From: Promethearchaeati archaeon
GTDB taxonomy: Archaea; Asgardarchaeota; Heimdallarchaeia; Heimdallarchaeales; Heimdallarchaeaceae
Reading direction: 5' to 3'
Assembly (NCBI GenBank): GCA_013166775.1
Contig: JABLTJ010000002.1
Coordinates: forward strand, 153,891-217,890
Length of the DNA: 64,000 nucleotides
Made by a program: the position numbers and the translations under genes. Below, piece after piece: positions 8,929-31,572 of the stretch (positions are counted from its first letter, which is position 1; the number at the start of each line of letters is the position of its first letter). The notes beneath the pieces were generated by a model. The model worked only from the letters and a program-made list of their open reading frames with translations. It had not been told where the DNA came from and searched no databases.

Positions 8929-10182
8929 GTGCATCCAATGGTTTCTAAGTATCTCAAAATTACTCTTATAGCCGTATTAGTAATTGGAATAGTAGTACCT
9001 ATTTTCTTCTTAAGTTTCTATAACAGATCAGATGAATCTGAAATAGAAATTTGGTATACCTATGAAGGTATTGATGTAATTAAGGAGAGAGTTTTAGAAT
9101 ACGAGAATCTTAATCCTAGAGTAAAAATCATTCTTCAAGAACAACCATCCTCGGGATGGTTGGATAAATTTATCAGTGTAGCGCAAACGGGAGAATCTCC
9201 AGATATCTTTCTTGCAAAGGGTTCGTGGTTCGGTGAATTAGCTGGTTTGGGATATATTCTACCCTTAACTCCATTTCTAACACCACAAAAAGAAGCGGAG
9301 TTCCTTCCATCTGCAATAGATGGACTTAGTTATGAGAATGAACTTTGGGGATTACCTCTCTGGTATGATTCTATTTTACTATTCTATAATAAGGGTTTAT
9401 TTGACCAGGCAGGGCTTTCTTATCCAAACTCTAATTGGACAGATATTGATTTGATATATGCAGCAGTTCAGTTAACAGACAGATCAGAAAACCAGATTTA
9501 TGGCTTGGTGTGGAGCACTTTATCTCCTTATATGTGGCCTTCTTTTCAATATGGGTTTGATCATGGATCTCTTTATCAAAATGGTCAGATTGTTGTAAAT
9601 GATACAGCTTCAGTCAATGCTATGGAATTCATTTACGATTTGAAATATTTTCATAGATGTGTAGACTATGATGATAGTAGTAATTCTGCTACTCAAGCAT
9701 TTATAGCACACAAAGGAGCTATGTTAATTTATGGTGGATGGTATACTCCTACTCTAGATACATTAGATATAAACTATGGTTTGGAAGTACTCCCAATTAT
9801 CTCTTCTACGAATAAAAGGATAACCCCAATGGTTGAAATCAAAGGGTGGGGGATTTCAAAAGATGCTAAAAATTCAAGTTTATGCTACGAAATAATATCT
9901 TTTCTTACTGCAAAAGAAACTCAAGAAGACTTAATCCAATTTGAATACAAGGTACCAACACTGTTTGAATTGATAAATTCCCCTTCTGTTGCAGATAATA
10001 CAGTGATAAAAACTCAGATTAATCAGATTGAGTTCAGTCAGTATTATCCTTTAGATCCAATATATAATTTTTATAGTGATTATATGAGAGCAGCTTTACA
10101 GTTTATTTTATACGATCATCAAGATATTCAAGCAGCTTTGGATGAAGCTCAAGCTGGAATAAATGCTAATACTAGAAGTTGA
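8929..10182 (+). CDS. Carbohydrate ABC transporter substrate-binding protein (MalE-like)
   Basis: N-terminal anchor; PDIF, YENELWGLP, LFYNKGLF..AGL.YP..NWT; upstream of the permease and MalK. Confidence 0.9.
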   Translation: MHPMVSKYLKITLIAVLVIGIVVPIFFLSFYNRSDESEIEIWYTYEGIDVIKERVLEYENLNPRVKIILQEQPSSGWLDKFISVAQTGESPDIFLAKGSWFGELAGLGYILPLTPFLTPQKEAEFLPSAIDGLSYENELWGLPLWYDSILLFYNKGLFDQAGLSYPNSNWTDIDLIYAAVQLTDRSENQIYGLVWSTLSPYMWPSFQYGFDHGSLYQNGQIVVNDTASVNAMEFIYDLKYFHRCVDYDDSSNSATQAFIAHKGAMLIYGGWYTPTLDTLDINYGLEVLPIISSTNKRITPMVEIKGWGISKDAKNSSLCYEIISFLTAKETQEDLIQFEYKVPTLFELINSPSVADNTVIKTQINQIEFSQYYPLDPIYNFYSDYMRAALQFILYDHQDIQAALDEAQAGINANTRS

Positions 10183-10186
10183 TTTT

Positions 10187-13100
10187 ATGAGAACGTTGAA
10201 TCGTAAAGCAATTTTGTTTTGTTTAATTGTATTCACAATATTCCTTTCATTAAACATAATTCAAGATAACAAACTTGCTTTAATGCAGGTTTCAGCTCAA
10301 GCAGAAGAAACCGAAATTGTTGAAATAAGAGATCGGTCCATTTCTGTTAATTGGTCTATCCCTGTAATTCATAACTTCAATAGTTTTAGAATATCTCTAT
10401 TGAGTAATAATTCTGAAGAAGAAAGTACTTGGACTATGATTCTATTCAATAGTTCTATTGAAACAACAACAAACAGTTTTTCACTAGTTAATTACAGTTC
10501 TTCTGGATCATTGCATTCTGCTCAGAAAATCTTTACAACCAATTTTACTTCATACATAGTAGAAAATACAGCAGAAACAATACAAACTAGAATCACTGGA
10601 TTACAGCCTTCATCGTTTTATACAATATTCCTTTATCTATCTAATTCTTCTCTAATTCAAGAAGAAGGAAATCAAGTAATTTATTCTGCTACTGAGGAAT
10701 TGTATTGGAACTCTACATTCATTGAAACAAAATTAAGTACCGAAGATGCACTTGAATATTCTAGGAGGGCAACAATATTATCTCTTCTTTTTATCGTTGT
10801 AATTTTCATAGTTATATTCTACATAGTTGCTAGAAAGGATGTTCCGTTTAATCGTATCGCTTATATTTTCATCTTTCCAGCTCTATTTGCACTGGTTTTA
10901 CTTGAGATCTATCCAATAATTTATGGTGTAATTCTATCATTCACGTCCTACAATTTAAAAAGAGGAGAGATACCAAAATTCAATTGGTTTCAAAACTATG
11001 CAAATGTTGCAGAAAATCCTCAGATGCCAATTGCATTCACAACTACTTTAGTATGGACAACATTGATTATAATTGCAAAGATTCTCCTAGGATTCTTAAT
11101 AGCATATTTAATTCATTTTAAAGTAAAAAGAAAGAAACTATGGTATTTGTTTCTTTACCTTCCTTGGGCCATACCTTCCTATATCAAAATACTATCCTGG
11201 CGTACATTCATTCAAGGTAACTCGGGAGATTCATTCTTCAATATGCTTTTTGGAACGAAAGTTAATCTTGTCTCCCAACCATATGTTACTTTGATAATCG
11301 CATGTTTTGTGGAAGTGTGGGATTCAATTCCTCTAATAACAACTCTTTTCCTAGGAGGTATGAGTTCTATACCAAGAGAATTAAATGATTTAGCAGAAAT
11401 TGATCAGATTGGAGAAGGAACAAAAATTAGGAAAATAGTCGTTCCTCTAATTAAACCTATTATCATTCCTGCAATTATTCTAGAAATTATCAAAACATTC
11501 GGTAGTTTTAATGTAGCATTCTTTCTTACGAAAGGTTATCCGCTTTTATCTTATGGAACAAGTGATGCGGGAGTTATTGGAGCTACGGATTTATTCAGTA
11601 CATTCACATTTTATATGTTCTATCATAAGAGAGAGGTAGGAATTGCAGCAGCTTACTCGACAATAATGAGTTTGTTGACACTATTTTTTGTTCTTATTTG
11701 GATTAAAATGTCAAGAGGAACACAGAGTACATATCAACCCACTAAAAAGAAACTTCCTTCAAGAACAAAGAATTTTCTTCCTGTTTTAGGATTATTACAA
11801 GCTTTAGGATACATTTTAGCAGGTATCACAGGTTTTAGATACTTCGGAATTCATTACAGCAGTACTTTAAATTATTTTATTGGTTCTTTCTATTTTCTAA
11901 CTTCAATAATTTTGATTTTCTACAGAGAAAAAATCTATAATTTGTTTAAACTTCTTATCATACTTGATTTAGTAATTTCTGTTTCACAGTTCTTTGTACT
12001 ACAAATGTGGTTCGCTTTTAATTGGAATATTTTCATAGTGTTTTTTGAATTATTCATTCTTTCAGGCATAAACAAAAAATCTATCCAGTACTCTAGGAGT
12101 GAAATTTTACGGAATATTAGGAGTAGAGTCAGATCTTTCAAATTTATGGTTACGAATTCACTAAAACAAATTGATAGATTTCTAGTTGATATGCAAACAT
12201 TACATGTAATCTTCTCACTTCAAACGCTATTCTTACTTCTGTTTAACATAATTTTGAAAAACAAATCATGGATCATGTGGAGTGTTTTTACTATCTTTCT
12301 TGTGAGTCTCAGTTTCTCATTCTTCTCAAATAGAATGCTGAAAATCTCTATTATTCTGCAAATTCCTCTTCATTTAGGATTGATTTTTAGTTCTCCTCCT
12401 ATTGGGTGGACGATTAGTCAAATCTTATTTTCAATAATTTTTATCATTAACTATGCAAAAGTAGGAGTAAACCAGAATTCTGTAATGACGAAGAATTCAT
12501 TTGGAAAGAAGATTTTAAGGTTTCTATCACTTCCAAATAACAGCTCATTATTGCTATTGTTTGTAATTACTATAACTTTCATTCCTATATGGAACATAAT
12601 CTGGATAGCTTTTGCTTCTGGTAATCAAATAGTTCCCACTTCCTTCATTCCCAAGAATCCTACTTTAGATAATTTTCGCCTTCTATTTACACAAGAAGAG
12701 ATTTATCTGAATTTCGGAAACTCTTTATTAGTTGCGCTAGGTTCTGCAGGTATATGCGTACTTATTACGACGCTAGCAGGTTATTCTTTTTCACGATATA
12801 ACTTCAAAGCTAAAAAGGAGCTGATGGTTGGAGTTTTCGTTTTAAAGATATTTACTGGGATATTAACGCTAATACCTTTCTATCTCATTATGTTTAATTT
12901 AGGATTAATAGATACTTATTTTGGAGTGATTCTTGCTTATAGTACTCATACAATCCCGATAGCATTATGGATCATTAAAGGGTACATTGATTCTATTCCA
13001 AAAGAGCTGGATGAAGCCTCACAAATAATGGGAAATCCCGCTTTAAGAACAATTCGTAAAATAATCCTTCCTCTTTCTGGACCAGCTTTAGCAATAACAT

Positions 13101-13351
13101 TTTTACTTAATTTTCTTGCAGCTTGGAATGGTTTCCTACTTGCTTTTGTTTTGCTTCAATCTTCATCAAAGTACACATTACCAATAAAATTATTCACATT
13201 TGTTGGTTCAATTGAAGCAAGTACTCCTGAATGGGGTTTATTCGCTGCAGCATCTATTCTAGTTATTATTCCACTTTTGATTATTTTTATCTTTTTAAGA
13301 AATTATTTACTCAAAGGTTTTGATAGTTCAATTGAAATGGGAGAAATCTAA
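10187..13351 (+). CDS. Fused carbohydrate ABC permease (MalF-like plus MalG-like) with an N-terminal extracytoplasmic FN3-like domain
   Basis: Two EAA loops (SIPRELNDLAEIDQ; SIPKELDEASQIMG) and the FN3-like motif ITGLQPSSFYTI. Probable start is ATG 10187 (ORF track 10163). Confidence 0.85.
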   Translation: MRTLNRKAILFCLIVFTIFLSLNIIQDNKLALMQVSAQAEETEIVEIRDRSISVNWSIPVIHNFNSFRISLLSNNSEEESTWTMILFNSSIETTTNSFSLVNYSSSGSLHSAQKIFTTNFTSYIVENTAETIQTRITGLQPSSFYTIFLYLSNSSLIQEEGNQVIYSATEELYWNSTFIETKLSTEDALEYSRRATILSLLFIVVIFIVIFYIVARKDVPFNRIAYIFIFPALFALVLLEIYPIIYGVILSFTSYNLKRGEIPKFNWFQNYANVAENPQMPIAFTTTLVWTTLIIIAKILLGFLIAYLIHFKVKRKKLWYLFLYLPWAIPSYIKILSWRTFIQGNSGDSFFNMLFGTKVNLVSQPYVTLIIACFVEVWDSIPLITTLFLGGMSSIPRELNDLAEIDQIGEGTKIRKIVVPLIKPIIIPAIILEIIKTFGSFNVAFFLTKGYPLLSYGTSDAGVIGATDLFSTFTFYMFYHKREVGIAAAYSTIMSLLTLFFVLIWIKMSRGTQSTYQPTKKKLPSRTKNFLPVLGLLQALGYILAGITGFRYFGIHYSSTLNYFIGSFYFLTSIILIFYREKIYNLFKLLIILDLVISVSQFFVLQMWFAFNWNIFIVFFELFILSGINKKSIQYSRSEILRNIRSRVRSFKFMVTNSLKQIDRFLVDMQTLHVIFSLQTLFLLLFNIILKNKSWIMWSVFTIFLVSLSFSFFSNRMLKISIILQIPLHLGLIFSSPPIGWTISQILFSIIFIINYAKVGVNQNSVMTKNSFGKKILRFLSLPNNSSLLLLFVITITFIPIWNIIWIAFASGNQIVPTSFIPKNPTLDNFRLLFTQEEIYLNFGNSLLVALGSAGICVLITTLAGYSFSRYNFKAKKELMVGVFVLKIFTGILTLIPFYLIMFNLGLIDTYFGVILAYSTHTIPIALWIIKGYIDSIPKELDEASQIMGNPALRTIRKIILPLSGPALAITFLLNFLAAWNGFLLAFVLLQSSSKYTLPIKLFTFVGSIEASTPEWGLFAAASILVIIPLLIIFIFLRNYLLKGFDSSIEMGEI

Positions 13352-14639: not shown

Positions 14640-17600
14640 ATGATAGAAGAGGCTATGGGGGGCATATTAGATAAAGCCAATATTGGCATAACCTTTCTTA
14701 TTGATAATAAGATAAAATTCGTGAATGAAAAATTCTTACATCTTACAGATTACTCTGAAGAGGAAATAATAGAAAAATCATTTATTTTCCTTTCTACAAA
14801 TGAAGAAAAGGAAAGATTGAGAAATATCGAGATAAAATTATCAGAACAAGAAATCCATCCCAAGATTATTGAGTTTTGGATAGAAACAAAAAACGGTGTA
14901 AGAAAATATATTCGTAATAATTATTATGCTTCAGAAGATAGCAAACAGATGGAAGGTTTCCTAGTTCTTACTCATGATTTAACAAAGGAGAAGAGTAAAG
15001 AAGTTAAGGTTCTTGCATCTGAATTTAAAAAATCAAGATTTCTAGATTTTCTATCTGAACAGATAATTTTCTATGATACAGATCTTCGAATTATATGGAC
15101 AAACAAAGCTGCAAGTGATTCTGTTGGAGAAATACCAGAGAGTATGGTAGGGGAAATCTGTTATGAATTATGGTATCAATCAGATACCCCCTGTTCAAAC
15201 TGTCCTGTGTTAAAAGCAAAAGAAACAAGGCAAGAACAAAGTGCAGAAGTTGTTACACCAGATGATAAAGTTTGGAACATACGAGGATATCCCGTATATG
15301 GAGAAGATGGTACTCTGATTGGTATGGCAGAATTGGCAAGTGATATAACTGAAAGCAAACAAAAAATGAAAGATCTTGCTAAAAGCGAAGAAAGATTCAA
15401 ACAAATTTTCCATAACACTAATGATGGAATTTTTGTTGTCACAAGAGATACTGAGGGTAAATTCATTAAAATCATTGAAGCAAACGAAATCGCATCTAGG
15501 ATGTATGGATACACTCGAGAAGAATTCTTCGAAATGAAGCCTGCAGATTTTAATATTACTGGTGAAGAGGAAACTTTAGAATTTATAAATAATCTACTCG
15601 AGGAGAAAAGACTTACATTTGAAAGGAATCACAGAACAAAAGATGGGAATCTCATTCTTGTAGAAATCAGTGCTCATCTTTTTACACTTGGTGAAGATAC
15701 CGTAAGTATAGCTATTATTAGGGATATAACTGAAAAGAAGAAAGCTGATGAAGAGCTGATTGATAGGGAAGAAAAATTCAGACAAATATTCCAAAACTCT
15801 TCTGATGCAATATTTATTCATTCATTATCATCTGATGGAAAACCAGGGAATTTTATTGAAGTAAATGATATAGGTTGTGAGTGGACAGGTTATTCTCGAG
15901 AAGTACTACTTAAGATTTCACCACCTGAATTAGTATTTGAAAATGCTGCCCATGATGACGATATTAGTAAGAAACTTCAATCTATGGGATTTTTAACATA
16001 TGATGGCTTCATTCAAAATAAAGATGGGTATTTAAGAAACGTAGAATATAATTCCAGCATGTTTGTGCTAAAAGGAGAGAGAGTAATACTTACTACTGCT
16101 AGAGATATCACAGAAAGATTAATTTCTCAGCAAGAAATGAAAGAAAGTGAAGAAAGATTTAGAAAACTATTTGAAACAATTCCAGATGCACTTATTGCTG
16201 CAGACTTAAACGGGGACATAACTTATGCTAACTATCAAGCAGCAAAACTGTATGGTGTAGAAAGCATTGATAAGCTGATGAATGAGAATACATTCCAATT
16301 CATTGCCCAAGAAGACTTGATGAGAGCTCAGAATGGTTTTAAAGCAATTTTAACAAGTGGGTATGTGAGAAATAAACAATTTCATATTGTCGATAAGGAT
16401 GGTTCAAGAACACCAGTAGAGACCAATGCATCAGTAATTTTAGATTCAGAAGGCAATCCTAATGGTTTCATAGCTGTTGTTCGAGATATTTCAGAAAAAC
16501 TAAAAGCTGAAAAATCTATTCAAGATAGTGAGGAGAAATTTAGACAAATCTTTCATAGTGGTAATGATGCAATATTCATACATAAATTAACAAGGGATGG
16601 AAAACTTGGAAATTTCATTGAAGTAAATAGTGTTGCATCTGCATGGACAGGTTATGATCGAGAAAAATTATTAACAATGAAGCCAGCAGATATAAAATGG
16701 CCTGGTTTAGTCAATCATACCAAAAATATTGGAAAAGAACTACTTTCCACAGGTTCAACAACTTTTGAAGGGACGATAGTACATAAGAACGGATCTTCCA
16801 AGCCAGTAGAGTTCAGTTCACAGTTATTTTTATTAAAAGACCAAGTGGTTATACTTTCTGTTGCTAGAGATATTACAGAGAGAAAGAAATCTCAAAAAGA
16901 AATAGAAGAAAGTGAAGAAAAATTCAGGCAAATATTCCACAAAGCAAATGATGCATTCTTCCTAACTAAATTAATTAAAGAAGATGAAACAAGCAAATTC
17001 ATTGAAGTAAATGATATAGCATGTATATGGTTGGAATACACAAAGGAAGAGATTTTAGAGTTAAGATCAATAGATATTACAGCTCCTGAACAAAAGGATG
17101 CAAATAAGGAAATTATTAGAGAAATCTACGATAAGGGTTATGGAACTTTTGAGACGGTTCTTCTTGGAAAAAATGATAAGAGAATACCTGTTGAAATCAG
17201 CTCTCACATATTTGAGTTATGGGATGAGGAGGTTGTTTTAACAATAGCAAGGAATATCACTGATAGGAGAAGAGCTGAGAAGGAAATTCAAGAAAGTGAG
17301 GAAAGATATAGACAAGTCTTTCATAATTCAGGTGATATTATCGCAATAGTGAGTGTTCCACGTGATAGATCAATCGGAAATCTTCTCGAGTTCAATGAAT
17401 TAGCATGCAGGAAACTAGAATATTCTAGAGAGGATCTAATTGGATTAGGACTAGATGAAATAGTAAAGGATCTAACTGAAGAAGATATTACAAAGTATTT
17501 CAAAGAGATTATGGAAAAGAAAAGTGTCAAATTTGAAAGAAAGTTAGTAACAAAGAGTGGAGAATCATTCCCTGTTGAAATTAATGCAGCACCCTTTCTA

Positions 17601-18011
17601 CTCAAAGGAGAAATTACAGTTTTATTAACAGCTAGAGATATCACAGAGAGAGTTAAAGATGAGGAATTGATGAAGCAAGCATTTGCTCAGATAGATCAGA
17701 ACATAGAAGATTTTGATATCTTAGTAGATAAAATCAGAAATCCTCTTACAGGTATAGTTGGTTATTCCGAATTATCTGATTCTCTTCACACATCAATTAT
17801 TGTAGAAGAAGCTATGAAAATAGATGAAATTATCAAACAAATTTCAGAAAACTGGATTGCTTCTGAAAAATTCAGAGAAATCTTGAGAAAACATCTGTTA
17901 GCAGAACAAACCTCAGAAGAAGATAGTAGCAAAAATACAGAGGATGTTGTGACTGAGGTTAAGGAAGGTACAGCAGAGATTAAAACAGAGGAAACATCAA
18001 CAGCGAAATAA
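14640..18011 (+). CDS. Soluble sensor with eight PAS/PAC domains and a degenerate HisKA-like hairpin, no kinase domain
   Basis: Eight DITE-type PAC ends (DLTK, DITE, DITE, DITE, DISE, DITE, NITD, DITE) and repeated SEE(K/R)F(R/K)QIF linkers. C-terminal LVDKIRNPLTGIVG is followed only by a short helix and an acidic tail. Confidence 0.85.
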   Translation: MIEEAMGGILDKANIGITFLIDNKIKFVNEKFLHLTDYSEEEIIEKSFIFLSTNEEKERLRNIEIKLSEQEIHPKIIEFWIETKNGVRKYIRNNYYASEDSKQMEGFLVLTHDLTKEKSKEVKVLASEFKKSRFLDFLSEQIIFYDTDLRIIWTNKAASDSVGEIPESMVGEICYELWYQSDTPCSNCPVLKAKETRQEQSAEVVTPDDKVWNIRGYPVYGEDGTLIGMAELASDITESKQKMKDLAKSEERFKQIFHNTNDGIFVVTRDTEGKFIKIIEANEIASRMYGYTREEFFEMKPADFNITGEEETLEFINNLLEEKRLTFERNHRTKDGNLILVEISAHLFTLGEDTVSIAIIRDITEKKKADEELIDREEKFRQIFQNSSDAIFIHSLSSDGKPGNFIEVNDIGCEWTGYSREVLLKISPPELVFENAAHDDDISKKLQSMGFLTYDGFIQNKDGYLRNVEYNSSMFVLKGERVILTTARDITERLISQQEMKESEERFRKLFETIPDALIAADLNGDITYANYQAAKLYGVESIDKLMNENTFQFIAQEDLMRAQNGFKAILTSGYVRNKQFHIVDKDGSRTPVETNASVILDSEGNPNGFIAVVRDISEKLKAEKSIQDSEEKFRQIFHSGNDAIFIHKLTRDGKLGNFIEVNSVASAWTGYDREKLLTMKPADIKWPGLVNHTKNIGKELLSTGSTTFEGTIVHKNGSSKPVEFSSQLFLLKDQVVILSVARDITERKKSQKEIEESEEKFRQIFHKANDAFFLTKLIKEDETSKFIEVNDIACIWLEYTKEEILELRSIDITAPEQKDANKEIIREIYDKGYGTFETVLLGKNDKRIPVEISSHIFELWDEEVVLTIARNITDRRRAEKEIQESEERYRQVFHNSGDIIAIVSVPRDRSIGNLLEFNELACRKLEYSREDLIGLGLDEIVKDLTEEDITKYFKEIMEKKSVKFERKLVTKSGESFPVEINAAPFLLKGEITVLLTARDITERVKDEELMKQAFAQIDQNIEDFDILVDKIRNPLTGIVGYSELSDSLHTSIIVEEAMKIDEIIKQISENWIASEKFREILRKHLLAEQTSEEDSSKNTEDVVTEVKEGTAEIKTEETSTAK

Positions 18012-24068: not shown

Positions 24069-24446
24069 TCATCCTTCCTCTATACTTTTCATCATTCCAA
24101 TAAAAGCTTTGTAAAGGCACTCTGCGCAGCTTGTTGCTTCTGGATCAATGAATAGAATTACGTCTCTCATATTTTCATAGATTTTTCTTGGAATTGCTCT
24201 ATCGCCTATAATTATTCTGCGTTGTTTTGTAGGGCATGTAATACAATCCTCTTGATCATTAGTAACAGCATTCAAACAGTAGGAGGGATTGTTAAATTCT
24301 TCTAAATTAATATGTTCTAAATCCATTGGATCAAAAAAACTAATGACAATAACCTCATCGAATTCATCATCTAAGATACAATAAGTTGCACCTTCAAGTT
24401 CTTTATGCATGGGGCATGGTTGTCTAATCCACAAAAGTTTGGACAT
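24069..24446 (-). CDS. Cys-rich hypothetical protein, possibly metal-binding
   Basis: Seven Cys in 125 aa, including CPMH, CITC and CAEC. Confidence 0.65.
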   Translation of the reverse strand: MSKLLWIRQPCPMHKELEGATYCILDDEFDEVIVISFFDPMDLEHINLEEFNNPSYCLNAVTNDQEDCITCPTKQRRIIIGDRAIPRKIYENMRDVILFIDPEATSCAECLYKAFIGMMKSIEEG

Positions 24447-24540: not shown

Positions 24541-27500
24541 TTAAGCTCTGATAGGTGCTCTGCTTCTATAATCATAGTAAATTTTAGTAATTTCACTAAC
24601 CATTTTCTCATTGAAAGTTGTCATCATTACTGGATCTCCACTTGGAGCTTTGTGTCCTAGGAAACCTTCTTCAATTCCATCTCTGGTACCCATCATTACA
24701 GTTAACTGAGGATCATCCTTTACAGTAACATTTCCCATTGTAATCATTTTTGTTAGCAAAGCTTTGTCTTTTTCGTTGTGCTGTGATGTATTTGTTACAA
24801 TCTCAAGTTTTCTACTGAAAGTATCCATGAATTCAGAATCTATCCATCGTAATGTTGGAGAAACTATAGTAGCTGAAGATTTTGTATGTCTTAGCAATGC
24901 CATCATTGTTGCTCTTACTTGCTCGTTTCCTGTCACTAACCACATATCTTCTACAGGATTGGGTTCAATTCCCTTTCCTAGTGATAGAACATCCCTTAGT
25001 ATTTTCATTGAATCTCCTGTTGCTTCTAGAACAACGTCAATTTTACCAGGAATAGTGTTTAATAGTCCAGTAATATTAGTATCAACTGCTTCTACTTCTT
25101 GCAGAGAGCTTTTAATCAAATCTTCCTTGAAGCTCATCAGTTTAGAGTTATATTCAGTTTTCTGCGAATCTGCTATTTGTGAATCTTGAACTACCTTATC
25201 TAATTTCTCTATAAATGAGTTAAGTAATGATCCAAAGAGGTCTGAAACAGTTTTTTCCAGATTAGTGAGATCAGATTTTATTGTTTCATTACCTGAAGTA
25301 ATAGTATCAGTAAGAGTATCTCTAGTCCCTTGAACATTTGTTACTAATGCTGAGGAGTTTGAATCAGAATTTGTTATAAAACTACTTATCTGATGTTGGA
25401 CATTTAGATCATAATCCTTGCTGTCCTTGTCAAACTCTTCTTTAATAGAAGTAACATTACTCTCAAAATCAGTTGACATCTTATCGTATGATTTTTCTAA
25501 ATCCTTGTGAACTCCTTCATACATTACATCGATTTCTGCTTGTACTAATGATTTGAATTCATTAGTTGAGGTGTCTAATTTACTTGAGAAAGAGTCTGTA
25601 TCCTTCTTTATTAGCTTTGGATACTCTATAGTTAGTTTCTGCATTTCCTCCTTAGTGAGTATAACTACCTCATCTAGTTCTGAAGATTTCTCAGGAGATA
25701 CATTTAATTCAGCGAGTAATTCTTCAGTACCTTCTAAGAACTGTTGAATTTCCTGATCGATTAATTCGTTTATTTCGCTTTCAACTTTTGCAGTTTGGGT
25801 AGTATAATTAGCAACTGCTTCATCTAAAGTAACAGAAACATCAGTATCTAAAGCGTTCTTAGCAGTTTCAAACTCTGATTGCATTGTTTTCATATTTGTA
25901 TCCATAGAAGAGTTAACTTTAGTAACTAATTTTGTATGATCATCAATATTTGTCTTGAGTGTCTCTTGAAGAGTATTCATAACTTCTTCATTGTTTCCTT
26001 TCATCAAAGTAAAGATTTCTTCTTTCTTTGTTTGTAATGCAGTGAGTCCTTCTTCTAAATGGAGCTGCATCTTTGTTTTATCCCCTTCTTCTGCAGATAC
26101 TGAGGATTTTACAATGTCGTCTAGAGAGGTCTTAATTTTCTTTATTACTCCACTGAATGCTTTAGATTCAGCACCGACCACTTCCCTCAATCCACTTGTG
26201 CTGGTATCCTGGAGTTCAATATATTGTTCCTCGTAAGTTACATATGTTTCTTCTATTGTTTTCTTCATCTCATCTAATGATTTTGATAATTGATCGCTTA
26301 TCTCGGTTCTAGATTTCTCAAGAGACTGACTAGATGATTGAATTGTATTGTTTGTAAATTGCGAAAGCTCATCTAGCCTTGCATTAACTCTTTGAAAAAC
26401 TCCAGTGGATAAAGTTGTCATAGAATCTGAAAATGTTTGAATCATATCCTCAGCTTTTGAACCAACACTATCCTTGAGAAGTTCAATATCTCTATTCATG
26501 CTTCCAATAAGTTGAGCCATTCTTGGCCCATCTTCCTTACCAAAAACTCTCTGAAGTTGCTTTTGATCTAATCCTTGGAAGGAGCTGTTAATTTCTTCAA
26601 TTTTCGCTACCGCTGATTTAAACTGATCACTAATTTCATTCAATCTATCTAAACTCGTTTTGTAATATATTTGTACTAAATCTGGTACTTCATCTCGTAT
26701 GTCTCTACCTCTTTTCGAAAAATCATCTGAAAATGCTTGAATATCATTATTGAATTGTGTTTCTTTTTCTTGAATTAGATCCTTAATTGCACTATCATTG
26801 TCCTTCACATTTTTCTCAATATTAGAAACAACTTTCTCTTTTAGCTCATTTAGGTGAGAAGTAAACACTTGTTTGAACTCATCATGAGTTGAAGTAAAAA
26901 TTTTAACCCGTTCATCCAGAGATGTTTGATAATCCGTTGCAGTTTTTGACAAATCATCTAAATAAGAATTAGTTGATTCTTCAAAAGTTGTCATTATTTC
27001 ATCAATAAAAGTAGTCACTTGATCACTCACTTTTTCAATTGAAGATGACAAATTTTCTTTGAAAAGGCTGAAACCATCTTCTATTCCTTTCTTGAGAAGT
27101 GATAAAAGACCATCGCTGTTCTTTTTGAAATCTTTGAGATAAGATGATAAATCAGAGCTAAGTTTGCTTTTCATTTCTTCGGTTTTACCTTCTGTTTGAG
27201 TGATTAATGCACCTAATTTTTCTACAGAATCAGTCTTGGTTTTATTAAGAAGATCTACGAATTGGTTTTCGTTTTCTTTTAGAATGTTTACAGCTGTTTC
27301 TTTTGATTTATCTATTGATGATTTGATTCTGTTAGTAGTTGCTTCTTCAAGTTTCTTAAGTTCTTCATTCAATGAAGCTAGAATCAATTTTGTTTTTTCT
27401 TGATGTTTATCTAATTTGGTTTCATAATTTGCAATTATTTTGTTTAGTGTGCCTGTTAGTTTTTTAGTTGAATCTTGAGTGGATGTCTTTGAATCAGATT

Positions 27501-28311
27501 TGATTTTGTTTACTACATCGCTAGTTACTTCATCTATAACTTTTTTCTTCCCTTTTGCAGTTTCAAGAAATGTTTGAAGCTGCAAGGATAGACTCTCCTT
27601 TATTCCTTCCACTTTCTCCAATATTGCATCAAGTTGAACATTTATTCTTACGTTGTGTTCTTGTTGAAGAGAACCGAATGTTTCTTCAACCTTAAGCTTG
27701 AAAGCTTCATGATGTTCTCCTATTTTGTGTATTGTGGAATCGAAGGAATTCAAAACGTTCTCTCTAACTCTTTGAGCAGATTTAGCTATATTCTCACTGT
27801 TTGTAGAAGATATTGTTGAAGTTTCGGAATTAACTCTTTCAATAATCTCTGTTAGTTCACTCTTTCCTGTGTCTACATGTGATGATATAATTTCTAGAAA
27901 TTGTTTTGATATCCCACTTACTTCTTGAGAATGAGCGTCTACATCTTGAGTGATTTTCTCATGAAAACTAGTTAATTGTGTTCTAAAATTCTGCATTGTT
28001 TTATTCCAATCAACTTTAACATCATCACTCAGAGTTTTCAATTCATTTTCTAAACGTTGAGAAACGTCTTCTGTTAATTTAATTTGAGGAGGTAATGGAA
28101 TATAATAAGAAGTTCCTTCTGCATTTTTTGCTTTTACCTCTTTAACATATCCGCGACCAACCAATTTTTCCAATGCTGAATTTATTTCATCAGCAGAGAT
28201 CTTAACGTAGGTCTGGATTTGTCCAACAGTACGGAAACCATACTGCACAATGTTTGAATAAACTTGGATTTCATCTTTCGATAATCCTATTTTTTCTAAT
28301 GTTCCTTGCAT
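24541..28311 (-). CDS. TrmB-like protein (N-terminal wHTH, C-terminal TrmB effector/PLD-like domain) split by a ~1040-aa helical rod
   Basis: N-terminus LEKIGLSKDEIQVY...L.KL..RGYV...YYIPLPP is TrmB-type. C-terminus MWLVTG.EQV...L.HTKSSATIVSP...RDG.E matches the TrmB C-domain pattern. aa 76-1116 is helical with only 5 Pro. Confidence 0.75.
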   Translation of the reverse strand: MQGTLEKIGLSKDEIQVYSNIVQYGFRTVGQIQTYVKISADEINSALEKLVGRGYVKEVKAKNAEGTSYYIPLPPQIKLTEDVSQRLENELKTLSDDVKVDWNKTMQNFRTQLTSFHEKITQDVDAHSQEVSGISKQFLEIISSHVDTGKSELTEIIERVNSETSTISSTNSENIAKSAQRVRENVLNSFDSTIHKIGEHHEAFKLKVEETFGSLQQEHNVRINVQLDAILEKVEGIKESLSLQLQTFLETAKGKKKVIDEVTSDVVNKIKSDSKTSTQDSTKKLTGTLNKIIANYETKLDKHQEKTKLILASLNEELKKLEEATTNRIKSSIDKSKETAVNILKENENQFVDLLNKTKTDSVEKLGALITQTEGKTEEMKSKLSSDLSSYLKDFKKNSDGLLSLLKKGIEDGFSLFKENLSSSIEKVSDQVTTFIDEIMTTFEESTNSYLDDLSKTATDYQTSLDERVKIFTSTHDEFKQVFTSHLNELKEKVVSNIEKNVKDNDSAIKDLIQEKETQFNNDIQAFSDDFSKRGRDIRDEVPDLVQIYYKTSLDRLNEISDQFKSAVAKIEEINSSFQGLDQKQLQRVFGKEDGPRMAQLIGSMNRDIELLKDSVGSKAEDMIQTFSDSMTTLSTGVFQRVNARLDELSQFTNNTIQSSSQSLEKSRTEISDQLSKSLDEMKKTIEETYVTYEEQYIELQDTSTSGLREVVGAESKAFSGVIKKIKTSLDDIVKSSVSAEEGDKTKMQLHLEEGLTALQTKKEEIFTLMKGNNEEVMNTLQETLKTNIDDHTKLVTKVNSSMDTNMKTMQSEFETAKNALDTDVSVTLDEAVANYTTQTAKVESEINELIDQEIQQFLEGTEELLAELNVSPEKSSELDEVVILTKEEMQKLTIEYPKLIKKDTDSFSSKLDTSTNEFKSLVQAEIDVMYEGVHKDLEKSYDKMSTDFESNVTSIKEEFDKDSKDYDLNVQHQISSFITNSDSNSSALVTNVQGTRDTLTDTITSGNETIKSDLTNLEKTVSDLFGSLLNSFIEKLDKVVQDSQIADSQKTEYNSKLMSFKEDLIKSSLQEVEAVDTNITGLLNTIPGKIDVVLEATGDSMKILRDVLSLGKGIEPNPVEDMWLVTGNEQVRATMMALLRHTKSSATIVSPTLRWIDSEFMDTFSRKLEIVTNTSQHNEKDKALLTKMITMGNVTVKDDPQLTVMMGTRDGIEEGFLGHKAPSGDPVMMTTFNEKMVSEITKIYYDYRSRAPIRA

Positions 28312-28320
28312 TTTAATCCC

Positions 28321-29775
28321 TTATCTATACAATTCATTCTTTATTGCTTCGATGTTCTTTTCTAATCTTTCTAAACGACTTATGAGATCTCTTTTCCTTT
28401 TCTCTGATTCTTCTGCTAGTTTTATATTTTGCTTTGCTTCAGTTTCCAAATCAGTTAGAGTGGTTTCTTGAGTCGCTATTATTTGACCTTTAGCTGCAGA
28501 TGCGGATGAAGATAAATCAGCTACAGCATCCTTTTCAACAGATTCCAGTCTTGTAATAATTTGGCTACTGGTTTTGTCTACTGATTCAATTATATCAGAA
28601 ACATCTTGCTCTATTGAAGATATTTTGTCTACAATTGTACTATTTGCTCTACTTTCGATATCAGATATCTTGCTCTCAAGATCAGTTTTCATTTCTTCAA
28701 ATTTTGAATTAAGTTGTTCTTGTTCACTTGATAATAATGTTTTAGCTTCTTGTTTCATCGTATCAGACTGTTCTGAGAAAGATGTTAGAATTTTATCAAC
28801 ATCTTCATTAAATCCTTCTTCAAAACCTTGAAGTTCGTTGCTATGTGCTTCTAGTTGATCTTTCGCAATTCCATCATATTTCTTAATCATATCAGCTTTT
28901 GAGCTATTGAAATTTGACATTGCTACTTCATTCACATCTATCATACCTTTTTCGTATTCAGCAAGAACATCTTGAACTTTAGTAATTTCATCTACAAGGT
29001 ATTTATCCATTGTATCTGATACACCTGAAAGTTCAGCTTGAATTCTTTTTACTGCGTTACTTACTAATTGTTCCAAATCATTTTTGATTCTATTAAAACT
29101 CTCAAAGATGGATTCCATATTCTCTGTTAATTTATCACCATATTCTGAACGTAAATGTTCAATTGATTCAAGCATAATATTCTCTGTAATGTTAATATTA
29201 TCATTAAGCTGTTCTTTCATATCTTCAGCGTTCTTTTCAAATGTACTAATGTTGTTGTTTTTTATTTCAACGATATTCTCTTTAGCTCCTGTAACTACTT
29301 TTCTAAAAGTGTTAATTTGGTTATTAGCTAATCTTTCCAAATCTTGGGTATGGGAGCCTATAACTGTATTAATATTATCATTAAAGGAAGTTGTATAATT
29401 TCCATACATAGTCTTGCTTTCAGATAGCAGTGAAACAATCGATTCTTTTAGATTTTCAAGCTGATTATTAGTCTCTGTGAACTTAGAATAGATAGTTTCT
29501 TTTTGGGATTCCGTCCATTCTTGAACTAAATTTTTGTTATCAGAAGTATTTTTACTAGTTTGTTCTTCTAACTTGTTTTTGTTTTCATCTATAAGATTCC
29601 TGAGATTCTCATTCAATGCAATGAATTTATTCTGAATTAAAGTTGTTAAAACCTGATAATATCTTTGAAGCTCCAACATACCTTCCAGAGATTCTTTAAA
29701 ATTTGTAACTTCATTTTCCAGATTTTCAATTTCCCTTCTTATTTTCTCTAAATCCTTTTCTACTCTTTCTGACAT
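28321..29775 (-). CDS. All-helical, proline-free coiled-coil protein
   Basis: No Pro or Cys; continuous amphipathic pattern. AGGTGA overlaps the upstream TAG and precedes ATG 29775 (ORF track GTG 29784). Confidence 0.8.
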   Translation of the reverse strand: MSERVEKDLEKIRREIENLENEVTNFKESLEGMLELQRYYQVLTTLIQNKFIALNENLRNLIDENKNKLEEQTSKNTSDNKNLVQEWTESQKETIYSKFTETNNQLENLKESIVSLLSESKTMYGNYTTSFNDNINTVIGSHTQDLERLANNQINTFRKVVTGAKENIVEIKNNNISTFEKNAEDMKEQLNDNINITENIMLESIEHLRSEYGDKLTENMESIFESFNRIKNDLEQLVSNAVKRIQAELSGVSDTMDKYLVDEITKVQDVLAEYEKGMIDVNEVAMSNFNSSKADMIKKYDGIAKDQLEAHSNELQGFEEGFNEDVDKILTSFSEQSDTMKQEAKTLLSSEQEQLNSKFEEMKTDLESKISDIESRANSTIVDKISSIEQDVSDIIESVDKTSSQIITRLESVEKDAVADLSSSASAAKGQIIATQETTLTDLETEAKQNIKLAEESEKRKRDLISRLERLEKNIEAIKNELYR

Positions 29776-29784
29776 TTTTTTCAC

Positions 29785-31572
29785 CTAAAAATCTAATTCT
29801 TTTTCTATGCTTTCAATTTCAATTTCTTCAACTTTTTTTGGTTCAGGTTTTGGTTCTGGTTCAGGTTCTGATTCAACCTGCGGTAATTCAACCTCAACTA
29901 ATTTTTCAAATTTCATTGATTTGAAATAATTATGATGAATACTTTCCTCATTATAAAGCTCTATTGCTTTCTTACGAATTCTCTCGTAGTTTTGTTCGTC
30001 TCCTATCTTGTTATAGCAATCGAGGGTAGATTTTATGTAACCTCTTATCGCATACTCACTTTTCGCTAATGGGAGAGATAAAGATAATTTTTCAAACTGA
30101 TCTGCAGCTCTTGTATACGATCTTTTTGCCTTTAATTCTTGATCTACAGCGTCATAATATTGAGCTGATTTCACATATAATTTTGCTGCAAAGTAATAAT
30201 TTTTCTCTTCAAATTCTCTTGCCATGTTTTCACAAAAGCCACCTGCTTGTTCTAATTCTTTTATTAATTCAAATTGCTGCACATTTATCAATGAAAAGTC
30301 ATATGCTCTTTGATACATCTTTTTCTTTATGCATATATTTGCTATTTTCTTCACTTTGGATGTTAATGCAAAATCAGCTAAAGGATCTCTAATTTTAGCA
30401 GATAGTTGATTGATTATCTCAATGGTTCCAGTAGATGGGGCAATATCTTTGTCAAGATCATCCAAAATGCCATCCAATTTAACCATCAGAGTTGTTAATG
30501 GTCCGAACAATCTTATTCTAAACTTCATTGTTGTTAGAAGTGATTCTTGCAATAATCTAGCATACGTTTCACCTAACCAAAGCATACCTTTTTCTTCAAG
30601 TTTCTTCAATGTTGGAGTTGAAATATAAGCTGATAATTGTTCAATAGGAAACAAATTCTCATTGTAAGAAGCCATTTCTAACAAAGCAGTTTCTTCTTCT
30701 TCATTTAATTCAAACAAATCTTTTAAATTGCGTTCTACAAAATTTTCAAGCCCCAAATCTGAAGAGATAAAAGCAATCCCTAAATTTAAATCAAAAATTG
30801 ATCTCTTACTTGTTGTTATTAAATCCAAAACCCCTTTGTTTATCAATTGTGGAGCTTTCCTTCGCAAGTAAATTTCAGTTTCTGAAATAGACAATGCTTC
30901 TACCTTAAGAATATTTGAATTGTCAGTAAGATATTTTTCGTAATCAAAATCATACAGAAACCTTTCATCAAATGTGCTTGTAACTATTATGTTATACTGT
31001 CGTTCCTTTAGTTCTTTAATTATAGAAGCAAAAATTGGATAGAATTCATATAAATCCAGTAATTTAAAAAGATGCAAATTATCAACGAAGAAATAAAGAA
31101 AAGTACTAGTTTCTATTAATTTTTGGTTTATCTTATCCAAATTTTCGAAGAATAAATTTACATAGAATTCTGTAAAAGAGATACTCGCTGGTTTCTTAAC
31201 CTCTTCATCTAGTCCAGGTAGATCATCTCCTAATCTCTTTTTACCCACTTTTTCAAGTAAGGAGCGCCATTCAGGGGCTAATTCATCTATTTTGTTTTTC
31301 CATTCCTTAAAGAAATCCAGAAGTCCTCTTTCTTTTGGTACAAGTTCAAAACGATGTGCAATGTCTTTTCTTCCAGTAGCAGTGGTTTCAAGTTTCTGCA
31401 AAAGTGAACTTTTCCCAGTTCCTTCAGCTCCAACTATTAAGAACGATAATACTTCAGATTCTCCTCTTTTTTTCTTATTTACAAGTTCAACAAAATTATT
31501 TATTGTCTCTCTCAGACCATAAAAGTCATGTGGCTGGCATGGTTGGAAAAGACTAATATTCTCTATAGTCAT
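29785..31572 (-). CDS. STAND/AAA_16-like P-loop ATPase with C-terminal TPR/alpha-SNAP-like helical repeats
   Basis: FYG start motif, Walker A GAEGTGKS, Walker B FFVDN. C-terminal LEQAGGFCENMAREF, YYFAAKLYVKSAQYY, AKRSYTRAADQF; EP-rich acidic tail. Confidence 0.75.
   Translation of the reverse strand: MTIENISLFQPCQPHDFYGLRETINNFVELVNKKKRGESEVLSFLIVGAEGTGKSSLLQKLETTATGRKDIAHRFELVPKERGLLDFFKEWKNKIDELAPEWRSLLEKVGKKRLGDDLPGLDEEVKKPASISFTEFYVNLFFENLDKINQKLIETSTFLYFFVDNLHLFKLLDLYEFYPIFASIIKELKERQYNIIVTSTFDERFLYDFDYEKYLTDNSNILKVEALSISETEIYLRRKAPQLINKGVLDLITTSKRSIFDLNLGIAFISSDLGLENFVERNLKDLFELNEEEETALLEMASYNENLFPIEQLSAYISTPTLKKLEEKGMLWLGETYARLLQESLLTTMKFRIRLFGPLTTLMVKLDGILDDLDKDIAPSTGTIEIINQLSAKIRDPLADFALTSKVKKIANICIKKKMYQRAYDFSLINVQQFELIKELEQAGGFCENMAREFEEKNYYFAAKLYVKSAQYYDAVDQELKAKRSYTRAADQFEKLSLSLPLAKSEYAIRGYIKSTLDCYNKIGDEQNYERIRKKAIELYNEESIHHNYFKSMKFEKLVEVELPQVESEPEPEPKPEPKKVEEIEIESIEKELDF

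Follow-up and report, generated by a model that had tools for sequence, protein, structure and literature searches.

A TrmBL2-type protein of Asgard archaea with a predicted long fold-back hendecad coiled coil

Results

A TrmB-family gene with a very long helical insert

The window analyzed here is a stretch of 64,000 nucleotides (G+C ∼33%) from a Promethearchaeati archaeon of the family Heimdallarchaeaceae (assembly GCA_013166775.1, contig JABLTJ010000002.1, positions 153,891 to 217,890). On its reverse strand lies P0001, an open reading frame for a protein of 1256 amino acids (aa) in which a winged helix-turn-helix (wHTH) and a C-terminal α/β domain are separated by a helical region of 1041 residues. 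A first-pass annotation of this DNA, made from the letters alone, had read P0001 as TrmB split by a symmetric helical hairpin. We describe below the evidence that this region folds back on itself as a two-stranded rod. The gene and its parts, as we delimit them, are as follows.

24541..28311, reverse strand: rod gene P0001, open reading frame of 1256 aa, TrmB-type protein with a predicted hairpin rod
28087..28299, reverse strand: TrmB wHTH, aa 5–75 (Pfam PF01978; phmmer alignment to TrmB 3qph)
26578..28086, reverse strand: outgoing arm, aa 76–578, continuous helix in one hendecad register
27364..27378, reverse strand: helix break aa 312–316 of the full model, within the conserved island 310–320 and facing aa 869–873
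26524..26577, reverse strand: apex, aa 579–596, modelled as loop 579–582, cap helix 583–590 and loop 591–593, with Gly595-Pro596 opening the return helix
24964..26523, reverse strand: return arm, aa 597–1116, hendecad helix with modelled interruptions at 735–747, 869–872 and 979–1003
25693..25707, reverse strand: helix break aa 869–873 (Pro873), mirror partner of 312–316, with a one-residue register shift
24544..24963, reverse strand: C-terminal α/β domain, aa 1117–1256, PLD-like fold as in the C-domains of TrmBL2 and TrmB

Both termini belong to the TrmB family, as the first-pass annotation had proposed. The wHTH matched PF01978 with 47.4 bits against a cut-off of 25.6 (40.6 bits when the full protein was scanned), and phmmer aligned aa 4–97 with residues 10–105 of P. 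furiosus TrmB (3qph_A). This alignment extends through coiled-coil helix α5 of TrmB, so that aa 76–101 correspond to the helix that had been expected to link wHTH and effector domain. The C-domain alone had no Pfam match at E values up to 10 and no PDB match by phmmer; because these sequence searches were empty, it was identified by fold comparison only. AlphaFold2 (AF2) modelled aa 1117–1256 as an α/β domain with a predicted local distance difference test score (pLDDT) of ∼80. Residues 1118–1256 of this model superposed on TrmBL2 (5bqt_A, residues 122–262) with a Z score of 14.3, at 2.6 Å over 132 residues. The model matched TrmB itself (3qph_A, residues 107–243 of 335) with a Z score of 13.9 and NucT with a Z score of 14.7.

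Since only residues 107–243 of 3qph were matched, the sugar-binding subdomain of the TrmB effector domain is absent from P0001, and the chain stops after the PLD-like domain. TrmB-family proteins consist of a wHTH followed by an amphipathic coiled-coil helix, and TrmBL2 is the member without the sugar-binding subdomain (PMC4158304). The assignment to the family therefore stands, although the closest relative is TrmBL2 and not TrmB proper. The PLD catalytic motif HxK(x)4D was not found: in nine homologues Lys1144 is invariant, while H, R, D or T stands two residues ahead of it. Pfam and NCBIfam scans detected no ATPase family in P0001. Placement of P0001 in the TrmB family as a TrmBL2-type protein, built from a winged helix and a non-catalytic PLD-like domain, is strongly supported.

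A TrmB wHTH joined to a TrmB-like C-domain would also be found in a conventional TrmB regulator that responds to sugars, with the insert as a neutral spacer. We consider this reading extremely improbable. Besides the missing sugar-binding subdomain, the insert equals the globular domains in conservation and stays symmetric in length, and the neighbors of the gene encode an ATPase and a second rod rather than sugar transport or metabolism.

One hendecad register and a central break

The prolines of P0001 lie at positions 72, 74 and 75, then at 543, 596, 873, 898 and 1088, and then at 1117, 1119 and onward. Our recount thus agreed exactly with the earlier count of five prolines between Pro75 and Pro1117. 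The earlier claim that the Gly-Pro break falls exactly at the midpoint was correct in part. Pro596 (codon 26526–26524) does occupy the arithmetic midpoint, (75+1117)/2 = 596, but the modelled turn itself spans aa 579–593, and in the model of the apex fragment Pro596 sits in the first turn of the return helix. The boundaries of the helical region had been picked afterwards, from three candidate prolines at one end (72, 74 and 75) and two at the other (1117 and 1119), and on P0001 alone the coincidence has a p value of roughly a few percent. In the 1471-aa form of the protein, Pro702 lies against a midpoint of 703.5. The central position recurs in homologues of differing arm length, and is not due to chance.

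Fourier analysis of hydrophobicity over aa 76–1116 gave a power of 12.1 at a period of 11/3 and 0.01 at 3.5, with a maximum of 2.4 in 200 shuffles. The 11-residue period anticipated in the first-pass annotation is therefore present, far more strongly than was apparent there, and the stretch that it had quoted for a 4-3-4 hydrophobic spacing (aa 109–127) reads 4-3-4-4. A single hendecad register runs unbroken over aa 76–592, or 47 repeats; it slips by one residue at the Gly-Pro break, holds to ∼870 and slips again at Pro873. Core positions a, d, e and h are hydrophobic in a fraction of 0.38–0.94, compared with 0.00–0.21 at the other positions. They are also the most conserved, while the outward positions are polar and variable. 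The best-conserved part of the outgoing arm is its first 26 residues, aa 76–101. The rod is acidic, with a net charge of −61, of which the return arm has −43.

The same period produced matches to apolipoproteins. PF01442 (Apolipoprotein) scored 91 bits against a cut-off of 90, a marginal value summed over five repeated stretches, and the family profile matched apoA-IV (E = 2e-17) and apoA-I. These matches would be expected if the insert formed unpaired amphipathic helices on a membrane or lipid surface, as in apolipoproteins or perilipins, the helix type to which the first-pass annotation had likened it. That likeness did not hold up. Hydrophobic residues occupy only four positions in every 11 (a, d, e and h), as in the core of a coiled coil and not as on a wide lipid-binding face, and five prolines in 1041 residues leave no room for one proline every 22 residues. 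The head is of a DNA-binding type, and reading the P0001 translation by eye, with no predictor run, revealed no evident signal peptide or membrane segment. A lipid-surface arrangement also leaves unexplained the equal arms, paired indels and mirrored conservation described below, and we judge it very unlikely. Most likely, the PF01442 and apoA-IV matches reflect the shared 11-residue period only, and the similarity to apolipoproteins is convergent and periodic.

Within the outgoing arm, its only proline belongs to a motif, R-x-R-D-x-R-D-E-V-P (aa 534–547, ∼26671–26712, reverse strand), located 50 residues ahead of the apex and kept across the whole orthologous family. Orthologues have one proline per sequence at −50 to −41 relative to the apex.

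The two halves of the insert are mirror images

Comparison of homologues revealed that the two arms change length together. A short form of 1256–1264 aa and a long form of ∼1471–1490 aa occur, the latter with 106 additional residues at reference position 440 and 104+4 additional residues at 729/743, sites that mirror each other about aa 585–592. Measured from conserved anchors, the arm-length classes within the order are 515/524–528, 545/540, 600/615 and 620–632/629–644. For the family as a whole we used 23 representatives, each with <50% identity, which are the full-length relatives matched by an apex-region profile over its whole length; partial matches to this profile (P0062, P0072, P0078, P0107, P0133, P0164, P0169 and others) were excluded as repeat cross-matches. 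The apex lies at 0.484–0.506 of the helical region in all 23. Their arm pairs include 244/259, 435/447, 543/544, 574/579, 584/593 and 589/601 at the shorter end and 613/618, 621/633, 654/670, 753/751 and 800/806 at the longer.

Conservation is mirrored as well. When the conservation profile was compared with its own mirror image, the best of 600 centers tested was 592–593.5 (r = 0.40–0.50), and the conserved islands face each other in pairs (76–101/1084–1115, 198–206/984–994 and 360–370/818–830). In the full AF2 model (aa 57–1256), pLDDT along the chain mirrors itself about aa 587–592, with r = 0.83 against a background standard deviation of 0.33. Breaks in this model are likewise mirrored (312–316 with 869–872), and its loop 735–747 faces the indel site at 440. 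Average product-corrected mutual information, computed from 54 orthologues, was highest at i+j = 1187 and 1186 among the 400 anti-diagonals compared.

We obtained a more confident model for the apex. The fragment aa 436–750 reached a pLDDT of 85.2, with helices at 437–578, 583–590 and 594–739, and it folds back with a turn at 579–593; the antiparallel hairpin with an apex near aa 585–600 that the first-pass annotation had envisaged is thus predicted. This model aligned end to end on the chemoreceptor 2ch7_A (299 of 309 residues, Z 12.9). Along its entire length it also matched hairpins of Smc arm fragments (252 of 252 residues of 5nnv_D and 233 of 237 of 5xg2) and of Rad50 (305 residues of 7zr1_D).

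Stacked short bundles of the spectrin or apolipophorin-III kind, or a parallel coil, would leave the termini far apart. P0001 does have weak Pfam matches to ApoLp-III, Baculo_PEP_C and Phasin, and several breaks are modelled in the return arm. But the outgoing arm has 47 hendecads in one register with a single proline, and the top structural hits, aligned from one end to the other, are two-stranded hairpins. Neither bundles nor a parallel coil, the outcomes named beforehand as speaking against a hairpin, were obtained. Every mirror-symmetry result contradicts such an arrangement, which we regard as highly improbable.

The paired indels, equal arms, mirrored conservation, symmetric pLDDT profile and apex hairpin model are independent of one another, and all agree with an antiparallel fold-back. 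We consider it strongly supported that the linker helix of TrmB has grown into a two-stranded antiparallel hendecad coiled coil; that arms 76–578 and 597–1116 pair in register i + j ∼1186, turning at 579–593; and that this fold-back places the PLD-like domain next to the winged helix. The length comparisons argue strongly that selection holds the arms equal. The textbook rise of 1.5 Å per helical residue would give a rod of about 75 nm here; the 1471-aa form would reach about 93 nm and the 1812-aa form about 120 nm. In the full model, the break pair 312–316/869–873 is a candidate elbow.

Folding within one chain or pairing between two chains

The mirror symmetry itself does not depend on which chain supplies the second strand. 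In an extended antiparallel homodimer, a helix of ∼1040 residues would run straight through the midpoint and two chains would lie head to tail, giving a rod of ∼155 nm whose two ends would each carry a composite head, made of the winged helix from one chain and the PLD-like domain from the other. Extended antiparallel arrangements are known from apoA-I belts and domain-swapped apoA-IV, and the family profile match to apoA-IV fits with this possibility. So does the pairing of the short coiled-coil helices of TrmB, which is antiparallel between monomers, with contacts Phe81/Ile91′ and Phe84/Leu88′ (PMC4158304).

Several points weigh against our preference for a fold-back within one chain. A homodimer would be expected to have the same register of i + j ∼1186, with paired indels, equal arms and mirrored conservation, and the mutual-information signal is equally compatible with it. 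That signal is weak (z ∼3), and when 1087 diagonals were scanned together, two parallel offsets with about half as many pairs scored similarly. Confidence in the full AF2 model is low (pLDDT 64.8, predicted template modelling score 0.32), its topology is read indirectly, and a prediction made on a monomer is blind to pairing in trans and biased toward fold-back. A complex prediction of aa 1–315 with aa 872–1256 scored 0.17 (mark 0.32), and we counted it neither for nor against. Two further points concern the role of the protein. The TrmB residues that contact DNA, Tyr50 and Asp51, align to Asn44 and Ser45, at positions that vary in the family consensus; because they are not kept, DNA binding by P0001 is an assumption. 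The length of the neighboring rod (425–773 aa) does not track arm length and, because the lengths are not matched, there is no sign that this rod lies along the hairpin.

The center of the insert bears on the choice between the two topologies. Exactly there, the register slips by one residue and a cap helix stands between two loops, and within 10 residues of the apex Gly is ∼2.7-fold and Pro ∼10-fold enriched across the family. A continuous helix needs neither helix breakers nor a register shift, and we therefore favor a central turn over pairing in trans. The fragment model, with its pLDDT of 85, also folds back, subject to the bias of a single-chain run. Conservation at the apex bears out the first-pass annotation only in part: a Gly in a Lys-rich turn is conserved across the family, while Gly-Pro itself is kept only within the genus, and some distant homologues have neither Gly nor Pro at the apex, as a homodimer would allow. 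The turn of ∼15 residues with its cap helix contains no Cys, and hence no CxxC zinc hook, and no hinge domain. We consider the homodimer unlikely and continue with the fold-back of a single chain.

A conserved triad with a STAND-like ATPase and a proline-free rod

Three genes lie tightly packed on one strand, in the order P0003, P0002 and P0001. These genes and the one downstream are as follows.

29785..31572, reverse strand: P0003, first gene of the triad, AAA_16/STAND-like P-loop NTPase of 595 aa with a TPR-like helical C-half
28321..29784, reverse strand: P0002, middle gene of the triad, 487 aa without proline, one hendecad register over aa 50–434
24069..24446, reverse strand: P0004, Cys-rich protein of 125 aa with no family match, 94 bases downstream of the rod gene

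All eight loci retrieved from four families within the order carry the triad. Among ten loci from other Asgard families, five had it, with a rod of 425–773 aa and a TrmB protein of 1176–1812 aa; the remaining five were paralogues without ATPase and rod neighbors. Conservation of the triad (STAND-like ATPase, proline-free rod and TrmB rod) in several Asgard lineages is strongly supported.

P0003, always first in the triad, has an intact Walker A motif (GAEGTGKS), a Walker B ending in DN and an acidic Glu/Pro-rich tail. A SNAP-like reading of its C-half was rejected: Pfam gave no SNAP match at E values up to 1, and its language-model neighbors were TPR and AAA_16 clusters. In P0002 orthologues of ∼770 aa, the power at 11/3 is ∼20, and a single helix of that size would be ∼115 nm long. 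P0004 adjoins the rod gene only within the taxonomic family of the window (three loci, 41–66% identity).

Two further genes were noted elsewhere in the window. A protein of 1123 aa (14640–18011, forward strand) contains at least eight PAS domains and a weak HisKA match, and its gene adjoins one for a Na/Ca exchanger. An open reading frame of 1062 aa (10163–13351, forward strand) has an ABC permease domain near its C-terminus (aa 893–1049) as its sole match, with the ∼890 residues before it unassigned; an ABC ATPase gene follows.

Distribution of the family

A search with full-length P0001 matched 46 of the 83 genomes in the class, among them every family of the order, mostly with a single gene. 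The C-domain profile reached further, to 239 of 300 genomes of the phylum and 69 of 76 genera, often in two to four copies. Searched against 1.84 billion representative proteins, it found 223 relatives of 300–1812 aa in which the domain is always C-terminal. Named members come from Heimdall-, Freya-, Thor-, Promethe- and Ranarchaeia, and all named homologues are Asgard. Their database labels are only “helix-turn-helix domain-containing” or “hypothetical,” and full-text literature searches returned no description of the rod family.

The genome analyzed here encodes a second paralogue (locus L032, G000:C1:178341-180527, forward strand), an open frame of 750 aa that begins with a TrmB wHTH and ends with the same C-domain (E = 4e-10); no ATPase or rod neighbors are present in the stretch seen around it. 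A subgroup of 655–842 aa (P0165, P0166, P0171 and P0175) has ∼80 extra N-terminal residues with CxxC before the wHTH. Judged from its sequence, this CxxC-bearing extension is possibly a zinc ribbon.

Discussion

We consider it probable that P0001 combines a TrmBL2-type head with a fold-back hendecad rod, that it acts with the other members of the triad, and that the rod is anchored on DNA. The nearest known proteins are TrmBL2 (PF0496/TK0471; 5bpd, 5bqt and 5box) and TrmB (3qph and 2f5t), which share the wHTH, the amphipathic coiled-coil helix and the PLD-like C-domain; with TrmBL2 the likeness extends to the missing sugar-binding subdomain. Unlike either, P0001 has ∼1000 extra residues at the end of the linker helix, forming the predicted fold-back coiled coil. 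It also lacks Tyr50/Asp51, its C-domain has diverged beyond the reach of Pfam and PDB sequence searches, and its gene lies in an ATPase-rod operon.

In overall plan, the predicted structure resembles SMC, MukB and Rad50, where a long antiparallel coiled coil within one chain brings its two termini together into a head. A further likeness lies in discontinuities at mirrored positions, which may include an elbow, and arm fragments of Smc and Rad50 rank among the best structural matches of the rod. In contrast to these proteins, P0001 has a winged helix with a PLD-like domain as its head where they have an ABC ATPase, and a simple turn at its apex in place of a hinge domain or zinc hook; the repeats are hendecads where theirs are mainly heptads, and the ATPase is a separate STAND-like protein.

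The cytoplasmic domain of methyl-accepting chemotaxis proteins (2ch7 and 3g67) is also a long helical hairpin and provided the best match to the apex fragment. In the chemotaxis-receptor family, length classes arise by symmetric indels in both arms. P0001 has no sequence relation to these proteins and is not a membrane receptor, and its apex is not its most conserved part. ApoA-IV and apoA-I (PF01442) have in common with it the 11-residue amphipathic period and the marginal Pfam score. It differs from them in having no proline punctuation, a narrow coiled-coil core and, in an archaeal cytoplasmic protein, a DNA-binding-type head.

By analogy with TrmBL2, an abundant chromatin protein (PMC4158304), the head may bind DNA in a TrmBL2-like way that sugars do not control. 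The acidic rod would then extend ∼75 nm outward from the DNA and serve as a spacer or tether. We speculate that rod length matters to function, which would be why the arms are kept equal. The P0002 rod and the P0003 ATPase, if co-transcribed with P0001, may be partners that bind or remodel the TrmB rod. Our best guess at the function is a DNA-anchored spacer, tether or bridge on the nucleoid. A paper with a roadblock protein for archaeal SMC as the subject of its title and abstract (PMC11840125) also refers heavily to TrmBL2, which may be the protein concerned.

A bolder proposal is that the triad is an Asgard-specific, SMC-independent chromatin machine, in which rods of a fixed length (75–120 nm), attached to DNA through the TrmB head and assembled or released by the ATPase, would space, bridge or fence the nucleoid. 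We think this doubtful; if it were true, the lineage closest to eukaryotes would have in this triad a prokaryotic precursor of a nucleoskeleton or a chromatin tether.

P0001 represents an architecture that is new to the TrmB family and widespread in Asgard archaea. In it, the TrmBL2 fold appears to have been rebuilt on the SMC/Rad50 plan, with a head from both termini carried on a long fold-back coiled coil. It is a clean natural example of a very long, phase-coherent hendecad coiled coil, and its length is under clear selection, since the arms stay equal over a range of 244 to 800 residues. Most Asgard genomes searched carry the family, often as several paralogues, with the core version in an operon with the ATPase and a second rod. 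Asgard nucleoid organization is an open field for which cultured strains are available, and this family offers it a concrete, testable candidate for an Asgard-specific structural system on DNA.

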